A stretch of 33,689 bases of DNA from a virus. The notes beneath the pieces are model-generated. The model searched no databases. It worked only from the letters and a program-made list of their open reading frames with translations, and was not told where the DNA came from. Location of the stretch: the IMG/VR virus record IMGVR_UViG_3300045988_054881, one strand, 5' to 3'. How positions within the stretch are numbered: the stretch's first letter is position 1; each line of letters starts with the position of its first letter. Made by a program: the position numbers and the translations under genes. Positions 13,018 through 30,287 of this stretch are shown here, piece by piece.

Positions 13018-13106
13018 ATAGTTATATTGTTCGTTAGTAATGTACGTACGCACGAGGAACAACTAGTTCGCGCGCGTGCAGTCCCCTGTATGGGACGTGT
13101 GCGGCA

Positions 13107-13138
13107 CAAAAGTACACCGCCAATCCGGCATATACAAA
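13107..13138 (-). promoter_or_regulatory. Canonical Bacteroidota promoter for the late (packaging/structural/lysis) unit.
   Basis: On the minus strand, TTTG (13138-13135), then 20 nt, then TACTTTTG (13114-13107). This matches the TTTG-N19-21-TAnnTTTG consensus and lies ~90 nt upstream of the terS ATG. Confidence 0.6.
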
Positions 13139-13314
13139 TACGGCATAGTTTTTCAAATAAACTCCTTTGTCGTTGGTTTATACACACGAAATACCTACAT
13201 TTGCGGCTCTCACATACCTGTGAGGCCGTTACAAACCTATTCTAAATTAAATAATAAATTACAAAAACGGTTTGTAACACTTATCTATCTCACTTTCAAG
13301 TACTTATCTAAAAG

Positions 13315-13701
13315 TGTGACAAACTAAAAAAGTCAGTAACCACTTTTGTAACCACTTTTGTCACAGCTAATCACCTGATCTATTGCAAATTACGCGCTTT
13401 TCACAAGTATGTGACAAAGAAAACGCCTCAAACACTTCCAACAGGAAATATATAGGTATATTGCTATCTCTACATAGCAATATATTCTCTTTTCTAATAT
13501 AAGTGTTAGGGCTATTTTATATACTTACTGTAACACATATATATAAATAATTGATATAGAGGTAGTTAGCTGTGACAAAAGTGGTTACTATCCTGTGACA
13601 TCAACATTTTTCCTTTTTGTTATTTCTACTGATTATCAATTAGTTAGGTGTGACAAAGGAAAAACGCTATACTGATTATCAGCAGGTTAAGTGTGACAAA
13701 C
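13315..13701. promoter_or_regulatory. Non-coding module A. It holds 7 TGTGACA sites, a 23-bp perfect inverted repeat, a conserved hairpin, an AT-rich tract and 42-nt-period direct repeats.
   Basis: No ORF of 60 aa or more falls between 13328 and 13907. Motif coordinates are given in the findings. A stretch of 183 nt is colinear with 29965-30163. Confidence 0.75.
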
Positions 13702-13814
13702 TTTTAGGCACGTAAAATTAATTACTGTGAATTTTTTACTTTTTCTCCTTTTCGAGCGGTACGCCCGCAATCGACTTTTTGAAAGATTTGTCGACGCACC
13801 GAAAATATAAAACA

Positions 13815-20014: not shown

Positions 20015-22450
20015 TTAACTTTTAGCCTTTCGTACATACCCTCTTTGTTGTCCGTGAGCCTTGCAACGTCTTACACCCCTTTCCCATCCCGGCATACGGT
20101 TAAGCACGCCTGTTATGTCTGCGGCATCGGTACGTTTGATCTTTCCTATCTCGAGATCCAGTGCCTCAACTAAAACAGCGGGAGCGCTTACAAAGTCCAT
20201 GAGCATACACTTTTCCTTGTCTACCTCGTCTTCGTCATAATTGGCATAGTACATTTTCCGTTCCAGTTGGTTCATTTTATCCCAACACAAAGGTACATAC
20301 ATATCCACGTATTTCTGAATGGCAGATGTTCGCGGATCAGCTTCATAGTGTTCTTCCCTTCCGGCCTCAGCAATCATTTCAGCTTCCGGGCTTAATAACG
20401 TGCTGACCTTCCGATAGTACATCTGCACTGCTTCCGCCCAAAGTTGATCTATGTAATCGTCGAAAGCGGGCTCAAAGATAAGATGTGTGTTCGGGTTAAC
20501 CTTACATCTCACCGGAAGGAAACGCCTGCCGCCTGTTGCGTCTTTCAGAAACTCGTCCTTATTAGTTGTGCCTATGAAAACACACTGCCGCGGAAAGTTC
20601 TTTGTAACACGTCCGTAGGCAGGTCTGAAACTGTCCTCTGTCTTCGTTATGAAGTTTTTCACTAGCTCTACCTCAGCTTTTTTCATGGCTGATAGTTCGC
20701 CTACTTCAATAATCCAACTTCCCTGTAGCTGTTCAAAAGCCCGTGTTCCTTCCATTGAAATTAAACTGTCGGAAAACCAATTCTTGCCTAGCTTTTTGCA
20801 CAGTGTACTTTTTCCGGTGCCTTGATCAGCCACCATAACGAGCATACTGTCGAACTTGCATCCCTTCTGAAAGATACGCTTAACGGCACCTACAAGCATT
20901 ATCCGAAAAGCTTCCCGGGTATATATATTGTCCTCGGCACCCATTATATCAATAAGCACTGTATCTACGCGCGGCACTCCATCCCACACAAGGCCCGTTA
21001 GGTAACTTTGCACAGGGTGGAACGAGTTATGTTCAGCCGACAACGCAATGGCATCATCTATCTTTGCACTACTGTTTATCCCGTACATGTCTTCAATATG
21101 TTTGCGGACACCGGAAAAGTCAACGTCTTGAAAGTCGCTAGTGTTATCTTTCGGGCGCCAGATAGGAACACGTGTTACAACGCGTCTTTCCTTAAACAAG
21201 TCTCTAGCTATCAAACCTTTTAAGGCGGGATCATGCTGCATTATCAACCCTAGGTTCTTTGCGCTAGGCAGATAAGCACCTCGTTTATCGGTTTCTAGCC
21301 CGGCCATTGCATCCGTGTACTCTTCTGTTATGGCTTCCACGTCCGTTACTTCCGGCACTTCGTCGCTATATAGCTCCTCGAAATCGTCCACAATTGCAGC
21401 CGCTTTTGCCGTTAACCGGGTGGCCCTTGCTGCTGCTACCTTCTCATCCTTGTTAACTAGTTCAGACATGGCACCCATTGAAGGGCGCTTGTCCTGTCCC
21501 TTATCCATCTTTCCGAACAGGTGAACACGAACTAGGTCGAAAGCGTTGAATACATGGTTTCCTTGTATGGGATCATTGTTATGGAATGAATAAGCAAACA
21601 TATCGTCAAACGTCAGCATGCCACCGGACGTTGATCCGCCTGTGTAAGTCCATCGGTCTTCTTTATCTGTCGGCTCGTACACTTTCGGAAGATACTTTTC
21701 TATCGCTTCCGATATGGTGTACGCCCGGCAGAAATCGCCTACAATACCATCTTTCAGTGTAGGGTTCTGCTGTTCCTTCACTAGGTTGCGTGCTTCTCCT
21801 TTTTCGTCCTTGTGGTACGCCCATTCGGTTACATCGCGCCAATTCTCGTAATACCCCAGATACTTTTGAACGTCTAGTGTTTCCTCGTTCAGTTGGGAAA
21901 AGTCCACGAAATCAAAGTCTACATCTCGGGACACGGACGGGTAGAACATACAGCGTTCGGGTTGGAACGTGGTACGGTCGTACAAGTCAATACCTGTTAA
22001 CTCGGCTACTTTACGGGCAATCGCCTCATATTGTTCGCTGTCTACAGGCTCAGACAAGGGAATGATAACCCGATAACGGTAAACGTTCGCTTTCGGGTTA
22101 TGCTTGTGCGTGCCATGAATAATGCAGGCGCAATTAATAATGCCGTAAAACTTATCCGGGAAATCAGACTCTCCGAAATCTATGTCAAGAGCCAATAACG
22201 AGCGCTCACCGACGTTGTTCTTATTCCGCCTGTTACCGAATAGTTCGCCACCCATGAAGGCGCCAACGTCCTTAATGTTTCCCTGTTCGGTTTTGCTCGC
22301 ACTAATAAATTCACGATAGGTTTCCTCTGTAACTTTCGCCGACGTGAACTTTTCCACCAACTGCGCCCATGTAAATGACTTGTTTTTCCAAGCCGTTGAC
22401 TTCGCGTTGGTGGCGGTGGCAATCTTAAAAACCATTTTAGATAGTTCCAT
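20015..22450 (-). CDS. Primase-helicase (N-terminal primase-like domain plus a VirE/D5-type P-loop helicase).
   Basis: 'LALDIDFGE' provides an acidic catalytic-type motif. Walker A is 'ADQGTGKST'. 'ATGGRRFLPV' is the VirE-family signature. 811 aa. Confidence 0.8.
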   Translation of the reverse strand: MELSKMVFKIATATNAKSTAWKNKSFTWAQLVEKFTSAKVTEETYREFISASKTEQGNIKDVGAFMGGELFGNRRNKNNVGERSLLALDIDFGESDFPDKFYGIINCACIIHGTHKHNPKANVYRYRVIIPLSEPVDSEQYEAIARKVAELTGIDLYDRTTFQPERCMFYPSVSRDVDFDFVDFSQLNEETLDVQKYLGYYENWRDVTEWAYHKDEKGEARNLVKEQQNPTLKDGIVGDFCRAYTISEAIEKYLPKVYEPTDKEDRWTYTGGSTSGGMLTFDDMFAYSFHNNDPIQGNHVFNAFDLVRVHLFGKMDKGQDKRPSMGAMSELVNKDEKVAAARATRLTAKAAAIVDDFEELYSDEVPEVTDVEAITEEYTDAMAGLETDKRGAYLPSAKNLGLIMQHDPALKGLIARDLFKERRVVTRVPIWRPKDNTSDFQDVDFSGVRKHIEDMYGINSSAKIDDAIALSAEHNSFHPVQSYLTGLVWDGVPRVDTVLIDIMGAEDNIYTREAFRIMLVGAVKRIFQKGCKFDSMLVMVADQGTGKSTLCKKLGKNWFSDSLISMEGTRAFEQLQGSWIIEVGELSAMKKAEVELVKNFITKTEDSFRPAYGRVTKNFPRQCVFIGTTNKDEFLKDATGGRRFLPVRCKVNPNTHLIFEPAFDDYIDQLWAEAVQMYYRKVSTLLSPEAEMIAEAGREEHYEADPRTSAIQKYVDMYVPLCWDKMNQLERKMYYANYDEDEVDKEKCMLMDFVSAPAVLVEALDLEIGKIKRTDAADITGVLNRMPGWERGVRRCKAHGQQRGYVRKAKS

Positions 22451-28325: not shown

Positions 28326-28526
28326 TTATCCGTTTTTACATGCTCTTTTTAGAGCGATTAGGTCTTTAACTTTCGGGTTATCCGAATTTTTGGTAGCGTC
28401 GATAAGTGTCATATCTGTAACGGTAGCGTACCAACACTTGCTAGTTACCGGACTCTCAAAACATACACGATAAGCACCGTGTCCGATAAGCCTAAACGAA
28501 AAGTCATAAATACTAATTCTCTTCAT
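28326..28526 (-). CDS. Small early protein, paralog of 29513..29758.
   Basis: 66 aa. The shared pattern is 'IS..DF.F...G...Y.V...SP.....W...V....LI.....NS..P...DL.AL...CKNG'. Confidence 0.55.
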   Translation of the reverse strand: MKRISIYDFSFRLIGHGAYRVCFESPVTSKCWYATVTDMTLIDATKNSDNPKVKDLIALKRACKNG

Positions 28527-28553
28527 AATTTCTACTTTTTAATTGTTATGGTA

Positions 28554-28607
28554 CAAAGACAAGGAATAAAACAATACGTTGTTCTTTTTGTTAACGTAAT
28601 TTAAGAA
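28554..28607 (-). promoter_or_regulatory. Phage promoter cassette copy.
   Basis: The minus strand reads CTTAAATTAC-GTTAAC-N8-CAACGTAT-N12-TGTCTTTG, followed by the leader 'ACAATTAAAAAG'. The upstream gene's TAA stop lies inside GTTAAC. Confidence 0.6.
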
Positions 28608-29106
28608 AGTTGTTTTTCTGAATTTTGTCAATCCATGCTTTAGGAACGATAGGGAGCGTGTCTATATACTGCTTGATATAAACCTTGCGCCCGTTTGAAT
28701 CGAAGGAATACCAACCTACGTTGCTATACTTGAAAAAAGACCTATAATCTTTGTTTAGCTTAACAACCTTACTGACTATATCGTTCACATCCACTTTCCC
28801 TACACAACCAGACTGTGCTAAATCAGATGCTTTCTTGATAAGTAGTAAGGCTTCCAAAAAGCACGGGTTGTCTCTCAAATAAACCAAGCATTCCTGCGTA
28901 TAGTGGGACGTGTCGCATAGGTCTACGGGTTTAGCTTTTTTCGATGCGCGTTTCAGTAACTCTTCGGTCATCTCTGCGGGGAAAACATACCGCCCGTTAT
29001 TGGGGAGATTTACCCGTACGATGACGGTTCCTGTTTTGGTGGAATCCATTAATTCCGGTGACACAATAATGTCGGCAATCTGATTTTTTAAACTTCTAGC
29101 TTTCAT
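28591..29106 (-). CDS. Hypothetical early protein.
   Basis: 171 aa with an ATG start and its own cassette promoter. Confidence 0.5.
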   Translation of the reverse strand: MKARSLKNQIADIIVSPELMDSTKTGTVIVRVNLPNNGRYVFPAEMTEELLKRASKKAKPVDLCDTSHYTQECLVYLRDNPCFLEALLLIKKASDLAQSGCVGKVDVNDIVSKVVKLNKDYRSFFKYSNVGWYSFDSNGRKVYIKQYIDTLPIVPKAWIDKIQKNNFLKLR

Positions 29107-29465: not shown

Positions 29466-29520
29466 CAAAGATATGGATAAAAACAATACGTTGTACATTT
29501 CGTTAACACTAATTAATAAT
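29466..29520 (-). promoter_or_regulatory. Phage promoter cassette copy with a ~70-nt GC-rich leader.
   Basis: The minus strand reads GTTAAC-N8-CAACGTAT-N12-TATCTTTG. Confidence 0.6.
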
Positions 29521-29758
29521 TTAGTGTTTTAATCGTTATTGAACCCTTATCGCTATATCCGTTCTTGCAAACGAAAAACAAGGCTTTTAAGTCTCTAGCT
29601 CTAGGACTATTAGAATTCATAACGGACTCTATGAGAGAAACGTTGCTGACGTGTTGACGCCATACCCGGCCCGATAGAGGGCTTTTATATTCTACTAGAT
29701 ATTTTCTACAACCCAATGAGGTGAACTCGAAATCGTGAACGCTGATTTTTGTTGCCAT
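29513..29758 (-). CDS. First early gene. A small protein, paralog of 28326..28526.
   Basis: 81 aa. 'ISVHDFEFTSLGCRKYLVEYKSPLSGRVWRQHVSNVSLIESVMNSNSPRARDLKALFFVCKNG'. Confidence 0.55.
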   Translation of the reverse strand: MATKISVHDFEFTSLGCRKYLVEYKSPLSGRVWRQHVSNVSLIESVMNSNSPRARDLKALFFVCKNGYSDKGSITIKTLNY

Positions 29759-29785
29759 TTGAATTACTTTTTAATTGTTATGCTG

Positions 29786-29840
29786 CAAAGGTAGGAAAAG
29801 ATATGGTATGTTATACATTTCGTTATGTTACATTAACACT
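29786..29840 (-). promoter_or_regulatory. Degenerate cassette-type promoter of the first early gene, overlapped by an operator-like palindrome.
   Basis: The -7 box TACCTTTG (29786-29793) is followed by the leader 'ACAATTAAAAAG'. The upstream boxes are altered (CATAAC / TAACATAC) but keep the same N8/N12 spacing. Confidence 0.55.
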
Positions 29841-30234
29841 TTTGTGCGTGTAACAGCTAAATTGTTGCATATCAAGGCATTATAAAAACGTGTGACAGAT
29901 TCAAATGTTATAGTAACATAAATGTAACACTGTAAGTTGTTGTAGGTCTGTGGGTTACTAGCGCTGTGACAAAAACACGCCTAAAATTCCCTTATACTTT
30001 TATTTCGTTGTTTTGCAATTTATACCCCTATATTGTAATCTCTGATATTACAATAATCTATTTTCTCGAATAAGTATAGGGCTATTTTTATATATTTGCT
30101 GTAACAGATATAGTTAAGTAGTTGTAATAGAGCAAGTTAGCTGTGACAAAAGTGGTTACTATCTCAAATGTTAATGTAACATAATCTCATAAGTTATTAT
30201 AAATGAGCTGTTTAACTGTGACAACGGTGTGACA
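29825..30234. promoter_or_regulatory. Non-coding module B. It holds 5 TGTGACA sites, 3 ATGTTA-N3-TAACA(T/C) palindromes, a conserved hairpin and the 29-nt core shared with module A.
   Basis: No ORF of 60 aa or more falls between 29759 and 30287. Coordinates are given in the findings. Confidence 0.75.
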
Positions 30235-30240
30235 GTCCTA

Positions 30241-30279
30241 AACGAAAACAGGGAAGCACCATTTTTGGCACCTCCCTGT
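30241..30279 (-). terminator. Terminator ending the late unit, specific to the minus strand.
   Basis: A 14-bp stem pairs 30248-61 with 30266-79. Three positions are G-U pairs in the minus-strand RNA but A-C mismatches in the plus sense. It is followed by 'uuucguuu' and lies 9 nt after the stop at 30288. Confidence 0.65.
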
Positions 30280-30287
30280 TTTTCTAT

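Follow-up and report, generated by a model that had tools for sequence, protein, structure and literature searches.

The window analysed here, IMG/VR record IMGVR_UViG_3300045988_054881 (33,689 nucleotides (nt); 33.7 kb), is an approximately complete phage genome in which every gene lies on the minus strand, and its early side carries three short palindromes, or dyads, of the form ATGTTA-N3-TAACAT. They are located in a 529-nt non-coding gap (29759-30287) between the end of the late/lysis operon and the first early gene. On the gene strand, the operon before the gap encodes portal, DUF6712, holin, lysozyme and DUF6549 proteins and ends in a hairpin terminator (30245..30282, minus strand; RNA fold of -26.7 kcal/mol, z-score -6.9), which forms the upstream boundary of an origin-like module (module B) described below. 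The first early gene (29513..29758, minus strand) encodes a protein of 81 amino acids (aa), a paralog of the 66-aa open reading frame (ORF) at 28326-28526. Its predicted promoter, P1, has a -7 box (29786..29793, minus strand) that lies 27 nt upstream of the start codon.

No close relative of the window was found among GenBank phages, where the closest cultured ones, EMB1, BU3-1 and BX788P2, share ~70-76% identity in conserved genes only and the dyad-bearing gap is unalignable. These three are lytic, circularly permuted siphoviruses of Bacteroides uniformis and B. xylanisolvens that package DNA by a headful mechanism, and BU3-1 has been placed in the proposed family 'Bacteroiduroviridae'. The window phage looks like a lytic siphovirus of the gut Bacteroidales type. 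A terminal-repeat junction or packaging site was considered for the gap and judged unlikely, given headful packaging in the relatives and the position of the dyads on the side away from the terminase genes.

Three dyads upstream of the first early gene

The promoter-proximal dyad, site 3 (29825..29839), reads ATGTTAcatTAACAC on the plus strand and GTGTTAATGTAACAT on the gene strand and agrees with the palindrome at 11 of 12 half-site positions. The other two are perfect 6-3-6 palindromes: site 1 (29905..29919; ATGTTAtagTAACAT), which has the iteron CTGTCACA (gene strand) 6 nt away, and site 2 (30168..30182; ATGTTAatgTAACAT), which lies in the terminator-proximal (left) arm of the module and adjoins a GGTTACTA element and an iteron. 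When both strands of the 33,689 nt were searched for ATGTTA-N3-TAACAT with at most one mismatch, these three sites were the only occurrences, all within the gap, whereas dinucleotide shuffles gave 0.19 on average and none of 100 shuffles reached three. The coordinates and sequences that the first-pass annotation had given for the palindromes were exact. Sites 1 and 2, the perfect copies, share a 21-nt repeat, TCAAATGTTA-N3-TAACATAA, at 90% identity, and the 21-bp form of the site is TTATGTTACATTAACATTTGA. All three sites keep the 5-3-5 core TGTTA-N3-TAACA without a mismatch, and an iteron-like TGTTACA is embedded in two of them. With two mismatches allowed in the core, 33 matches were counted against 24.7 expected (4 of 100 shuffles reached 33); this excess of degenerate copies is at most marginal and the copies are unclustered, so that the three exact sites alone are remarkable.

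Predicted RNA folds of the dyads reach -1.7 to -2.5 kcal/mol (z ~0), no better than those of shuffled sequence. They lack the stable GC-rich stem and U tract of an intrinsic terminator, and an Rfam search of the gap returned no family match. Since the dyads are too weak as RNA hairpins, their symmetry would act at the DNA level, for which a dimeric protein is the natural reading. The left halves of the dyads are also complementary to nearby GGTTACTA elements, giving GTTAC-N16-GTAAC at site 2 (30154-30182) and TAGTAAC-N34-GTTACTA at site 1 (29905-29960). The SOS boxes of Bacteroidetes, which have a non-canonical LexA and the motifs GGA-N5-TCC or CTAA-N5-TTAG (PMC8565304), were compared and rejected, as the half-site and the spacing of the dyads both differ from them.

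Conservation of the dyads and the architecture of P1

Scans of IMG/VR with the 236-aa and 81-aa proteins returned no relatives, and a scan with the 21-nt flanked dyad returned four chance matches on contigs without protein similarity to the window. Homologous gaps were gathered from metagenomes with three queries: homologues of the 81-aa protein, DUF6549 and the primase-helicase. The metagenomic and database loci compared with the window are designated here by L-numbers. Beyond the window, dyads are present in four lineages, namely the near-identical L008, L009-L014, L049 with L223, and L050 with L056, and these vary in their flanking sequence, their iterons and the genes that they carry. L008 is 94-99% identical to the window. 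In dyad-bearing lineages with diverged flanks, the neighbouring DUF6549 and first early proteins share 53-72% identity with those of the window. The search in related phages that the first-pass annotation had proposed as its own test found the dyads conserved.

In the 113 kb formed by the window and the dyad-bearing loci, 21 exact TGTTA-N3-TAACA cores were counted against 0.22 expected from base composition. The homologous gap accounts for twenty of them, and the remaining one belongs to the late-side module of L049. The 38 EMB1-type loci (246 kb) contain no dyads, nor do L051-L053 and L055. The earlier statement that the palindromes occur only on the early side is accurate for the window genome but not universal, in view of the L049 copy.

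The positions of the cores relative to P1 are conserved as well. The window, L008, L049 and L223 have the same proximal dyad sequence, with a core beginning 45 nt before the -7 box, while a distal core begins 122-147 nt upstream in every dyad-bearing lineage (125 nt in the window, 126 in both L049 and L223, 129 in L050, 122 in L010, 137 in L012 and 147 in L013). Both distances are kept although the window carries the segment between them in the opposite orientation to L009 and L049. The core of site 2 begins 388 nt upstream of the box. Among the copies, only the triplet in the middle (ATG/CAT, once CTA) and the outermost base vary, and the symmetric 5-3-5 arrangement is preserved. Between the window and L008, a single one of the 32 gap substitutions falls within the 45 dyad nucleotides (site 1, position 29908), and site 2 is intact. 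We conclude that the dyads are genuine and that selection maintains them.

In the L009 clade, the site-2 position is occupied by GGCAACATT-N10-AATGTTGCC instead of a dyad (L009 ~2503-2535), with the changes in both arms compensated; the predicted stem has -4.2 kcal/mol (z = -0.5). A unit composed of an iteron, a dyad, TGTAAGTTGTTGnAGGnCTGTGnGTTA and a second iteron occurs as 2.5 tandem copies of 64 nt on the gene strand of L009 (2725-2920), and L010 and L013 are alike. The same unit is found in the window (29901-29975) as a single, inverted copy.

Scans of genomes and viral contigs for paired dyads, as would be expected of a host regulon, gave one true relative, L223; the remaining matches among those listed were mostly unrelated, regularly spaced repeats, and the scans were uninformative about a host factor. 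Regular arrays of palindromes with the TGTTA-N3-TAACA core, spaced by 21-90 nt and in up to 20 copies, were seen in many unrelated bacterial and viral contigs (L065, L078, L143, L149, L192, L195, L241 and others). These arrays are probably CRISPR (clustered regularly interspaced short palindromic repeats) or other tandem repeats picked out by the search pattern.

The -7 box of P1, TACCTTTG, is a perfect match to the TAnnTTTG element of the Bacteroides promoter consensus, which has a -33 TTTG 19-21 nt further upstream (consensus as cited in PMC9330008). At the -33 position, P1 carries a CGAAATGTA block (29814..29822, minus strand) without a canonical TTTG, and this block is 20 nt from the -7 box in both P1 and P2. 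Promoters of the early and replication region follow an extended consensus, GTTAAC-(G/A)AAA..A(C)CAAC(G/C)TAT-N12-TAT(C/A)TTTGCA, again with no TTTG at -33. The class spans the whole phage family (the window, L008-L014 and EMB1), and its gene-strand -7 boxes in the window begin at 29793 (P1), 29473, 29148, 26334 and 19934. P1 resembles the sigma-A-type housekeeping promoters of Bacteroides in its perfect -7 box, whereas P1 and the other early promoters differ from them in having the family-specific block GTTAAC-RAAA..A(C)CAAC(G/C)TAT in place of the -33 TTTG. The family promoter may depend on an activator or on an unusual polymerase contact, a logic that recalls the T4 middle promoters.

Site 3 ends 2 nt upstream of the CGAAATGTA block. 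The half of the site farther from the promoter (gene strand GTGTTAA) is an upstream element common to all promoters of the class, and P1 corresponds to the generic promoter with a 10-nt insertion between GTGTTAA and CGAAATGTA. Because this insertion creates site 3, the site overlaps the generic upstream element and not the core promoter. The earlier description of site 3 as overlapping the upstream boxes of the promoter needs qualification, in that the distal half coincides with the shared upstream element but the site stops short of the CGAAATGTA block. If transcription starts ~7 nt beyond the -7 box, the centres of the dyads are at about -53, -133 and -396.

Two further promoter candidates in the gap were discarded. 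The box TAACATTTGA is one off in spacing as a -7 box and its TTTG is lost in L049 and L050. A plus-strand promoter at 30090 (TATATTTG), from which a small RNA might run to the bidirectional terminator, was dropped because the box is not kept in the 94%-identical relative and Rfam gave no match. Elsewhere in the genome, the late promoter before the terminase and structural genes (13107-13138, minus strand) reads TTTG-N20-TACTTTTG. It is a full canonical Bacteroides promoter and the sole intergenic match of this kind in the genome, which is unexpected for a late promoter. At 29505-29528, the stop codon of the 81-aa gene falls within an inverted repeat, AACACTAA-N8-TTAGTGTT, which directly precedes the GTGTTAAC element of the second early promoter and is also present in L008.

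Iteron modules and candidate DNA-binding proteins

The gap also accommodates module B, which contains ten TGTNACA heptamers (two of them within dyads) and two GGTTACTA elements, with an AT-rich core between. The right, P1-proximal arm (29849..29971) has TGTRACA iterons at 29849, 29891, 29923 and 29965 and a GGTTACTA element at 29953-29960, interleaved with sites 1 and 3. The core (29984..30098) has a GC fraction of 0.24-0.28 and internal inverted repeats. In the left arm (30100..30234), TGTRACA iterons are located at 30100, 30142, 30217 and 30228 and the second GGTTACTA element at 30154-30161. A paralogous module A (13063..13735), upstream of the small terminase gene, has nine TGTNACA iterons, and the two modules account for 19 of the 27 TGTNACA heptamers in the genome. 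They share an identical 29-nt stretch and an AT-rich core that is ~80% identical; the core is the best-conserved part of the module, both across relatives and in module A. A terminator (-22.5 kcal/mol) flanks module A on one side and the terminase-gene promoter on the other, so that both modules have the same layout of terminator, iterons, AT-rich core, iterons and promoter. They are ~16.6 kb apart, on opposite sides of the genome. As the first-pass annotation had noted, module A of the window contains no equivalent palindrome (none at 13063-13735).

The two-module layout is kept in the relatives, each with its own iteron variant at homologous places: TGTTTCA in L009-L014 and L054, CTGCACAG/CTGTGCA in EMB1, TACACAG in L053, GTGTTCCA in L052, GTGGCACAG in L055, TGTAACA in L049 and L223, and TGTCACA in L050 and L056. 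The iteron of L009-L014 and L054 (TGTTTCAC/GTGAAACA) is the same as one half-site of the bacterial parS consensus, TGTTTCACGTGAAACA, possibly by coincidence.

The likely reader of the iterons is an 811-aa primase-helicase (20015..22450, minus strand; VapE-like/DUF5906 in Pfam), a homologue of PriRep, the self-loading initiator-helicase of staphylococcal pathogenicity islands. It matches the PriRep structure PDB 7pds with E = 7e-118, and a model of its last 125 residues (pLDDT, the predicted local distance difference test, of 87) superimposes on the C-terminal domain of 7pds with a template modelling (TM) score of 0.70-0.74. PriRep uses a winged helix at its C terminus to bind 6-12 short iterons, which flank an AT-rich centre (PMC9371898). 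In the phage primase-helicase, hypervariability is confined to the C-terminal ~80 aa, which follows the coarse iteron class by separating the CTGCACAG/TACACAG types from the TGTNNCA types. The match is imperfect at a fine scale; for instance, the C-terminal domain of L049 is nearer to that of L054 than to that of the window. The strong PriRep homologue, together with iterons around an AT-rich core, leads us to read modules A and B as origins; they look like duplicated PriRep-type origins with co-evolving specificity.

Compared with the staphylococcal island origins (PMC9371898; 7pds), the phage has the initiator homologue with its C-terminal winged-helix domain and, similarly, 8-10 short iterons flanking an AT-rich centre, within the 6-12 of PriRep origins. 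The iterons are 7 nt long in the phage and 5-6 nt in the islands. Placement differs: the island origin is single and directly downstream of rep, whereas the phage has two modules, one 6.3 kb downstream of the primase-helicase gene and one 7.3 kb upstream of it, so that an origin beside the rep gene is not seen. On one 75-kb contig of the European Nucleotide Archive (ENA), two phage genome copies (L051 and L052) encode an identical primase-helicase but have different modules, with CTGCACAG in one early-side module and GTGTTCCA in the other early-side and the late-side module. This contig may be an assembly chimera; otherwise it would be a counter-example to specificity residing in the C-terminal domain.

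No DNA-binding family was found with Pfam and PHROGs in the replication, early and lysis-side ORFs tested, in agreement with the earlier remark that no repressor gene is recognisable. The 81/66-aa paralog pair, which the first-pass annotation had put forward as the possible binder, has no Pfam match; PHROGs gave one weak unannotated match (E 0.005) for the 81-aa protein and none for the 66-aa protein. The AlphaFold model of the 81-aa protein (pLDDT 76) consists of three strands and two helices and has no PDB match with E < 0.3. Among the first 46 loci, all 8 with the 81/66-aa family have dyads and none of the 38 without it does, although these form one clade and the association is confounded by shared ancestry. 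The wider sample is out of step with it: L049 and L223 have both conserved dyad positions and no gene of this family, while the unrelated L057-L061 (27-48-kb viral contigs) encode 60-63%-identical homologues with no dyad within 3 kb. The 81-aa protein was rejected as the binder on its lack of a fold match and on this distribution.

The adjoining 66-aa and 171-aa genes (window 28326-29106) are both missing in L008. A homologous 66/171-aa pair constitutes the first early genes in L050 (3709-4433) and L056, and 66-aa homologues also occur in L057-L061. The pair looks like a mobile small-gene cassette.

Possible roles of the dyads

We tentatively favour the reading that the dyads are sites for a dimeric factor acting from upstream on P1, possibly in coupling with the early-side origin. 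The binder would be a dimeric, sequence-specific DNA-binding protein supplied by the host or by an unrecognised phage gene. The dyads would belong to the upstream control region of P1, two of them at fixed distances and the third ~390 nt upstream, with the proximal site expanding or replacing the GTTAAC-type upstream element of the family promoters. From this placement of the proximal site, we infer that the factor may modulate recruitment of RNA polymerase at P1. Its effect could be activation, or repression by bridging sites ~80 bp apart, and would not be steric occlusion of the core promoter. Because the dyads are interleaved with the promoter-side iterons, their occupancy may also affect the initiator, by competition or cooperation, and may set module B apart from the dyad-free module A. 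A more far-reaching version, which we regard as unlikely, is an origin-selective transcription/replication switch in which the factor makes two otherwise equivalent origin modules behave differently; binding at the early-side module would then couple, or make mutually exclusive, origin firing and transcription from P1.

Other systems have operator or activator sites that work from a distance, such as the looping pairs gal OE/OI and ara O2/I1 and the phi29 p4 sites upstream of early and late promoters. The dyads resemble these systems in lying tens to hundreds of bp upstream at conserved distances, and both signs of regulation are possible among them. The likeness is one of geometry alone, and no binder, looping or architectural partner was found here.

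Several observations weigh against a factor acting on P1. The promoter and its transcription start are predicted from consensus alone. Site 1 carries the one dyad substitution in L008; the proximal site of L009-L014 has a 2-nt spacer, which is not expected of a rigid dimer; and the proximal site is absent in L050 and L056. The L049 copy in the late-side module is far from P1, and the majority of the distal copies have an iteron 2-7 nt away, a placement that a role in the origin would explain equally well. Furthermore, in a matrix of all early and middle proteins, no window protein was found whose presence coincides with that of the dyads across all the loci.

The chief rival reading, which we consider possible but rather doubtful, is that the dyads are parts of the early-side replication origin and not transcription sites. 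They would then be either inverted half-iteron pairs read by the C-terminal winged helix of the PriRep homologue or binding sites of an accessory factor by which module B is tuned or licensed relative to the dyad-free module A. This explanation draws on the location of all 21 exact cores within iteron modules, including the one in L049 module A, on the spacing of most copies from an iteron just given, and on the TGTTACA found within two of the three window sites. The modules themselves fit the PriRep type in their 7pds homologue, C-terminal fold, flanking iterons, AT-rich core and a hypervariable domain that tracks the iterons. However, the dyad sequence is unchanged in the L009 clade despite its TGTTTCA iteron, the dyads are absent from module A of the window and from all EMB1-type origins, and the conserved distances run from the promoter and not from the AT-rich core. 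Moreover, no TGTTA-N3-TAACA-type dyads are described for the staphylococcal island origins in the sources consulted (PMC9371898), whereas module B has them.

It is improbable that the dyads have no function and were copied along when the segment upstream of P1, which already contained the words GTGTTAA and iteron-like TGTTACA, was duplicated and inverted. The distal dyads of the L009 clade do lie within 64-nt tandem repeats copied from the segment abutting P1, the site-1 unit of the window is an inverted copy of that same segment, and conservation is about equal in the dyad and in the 30 nt beside it (TGTAAGTTGTTGnAGGnCTGTGnGTTA). Passive carriage is countered by the exact symmetric core, which has outlasted its diverged flanks in lineages whose neighbouring proteins are only 53-72% identical, by the restriction of changes to the spacer and the outermost base, and by the retention of the distances to the -7 box through rearrangement.

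The lambda operators OR1-3 and OL1-3, bound by CI and Cro, are contiguous sites 3-7 bp apart that cover the -35/-10 elements and lie on either side of a repressor gene with a recognisable helix-turn-helix. The dyads are similar to them in number, in length (~15-17 bp), in their position in a phage early control region and in the weaker third site beside two perfect ones. Unlike lambda operators, they are spaced 80 and 263 bp start to start and lie entirely upstream of the predicted core promoter, with no site over the -7 box or the -33 position, and no helix-turn-helix or ribbon-helix-helix repressor gene was detected with Pfam and PHROGs in the ORFs tested, although novel folds are possible. 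The classical repressor arrangement seen in the first-pass annotation therefore does not describe this region, and nothing was found in support of its other suggestion, an anti-terminator switch. We regard as very unlikely a lambda-like tripartite operator at which a small dimeric early repressor from the 81/66-aa pair shuts off or autoregulates the early promoter. In its favour, the 81-aa gene is the first to follow the dyads, the two co-occur perfectly in the first 46 loci, subject to the shared ancestry noted above, and no conventional regulator is recognisable; against it stand the separate distributions of gene and dyads, the 81-aa fold without a PDB match, the absence of the 66-aa copy from L008, and the spacing of the sites clear of the core promoter. 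Hairpins of RNA or single-stranded DNA for termination, anti-termination or priming are scarcely credible, since the perfect inverted repeats, their longer-range complementarity with GGTTACTA and the compensatory changes at the site-2 position of the L009 clade are offset by the negligible predicted stability of the dyads and of the L009 stem, by the Rfam result and by a probably untranscribed location between a strong terminator and the promoter.

Palindromic sites for proteins are ordinary features of phage control regions, and the dyad is a new motif of a familiar class. Almost nothing is known about the timing of gene expression in lytic siphoviruses of gut Bacteroidales, and the 'Bacteroiduroviridae' relatives have been described at the level of gene content only. 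The analysis supplies a 15-bp element conserved at two set distances upstream of P1, a family-wide extended promoter consensus, and two origin-like iteron modules with a candidate initiator. The dyad could be used as bait for a new phage or host regulator, or as a part for engineering Bacteroides phages. If the origin-selective switch were true, such control would exist in a lytic gut Bacteroidales phage without recognisable regulators. The setting provides a testable entry into the regulation of a poorly understood group of gut phages.

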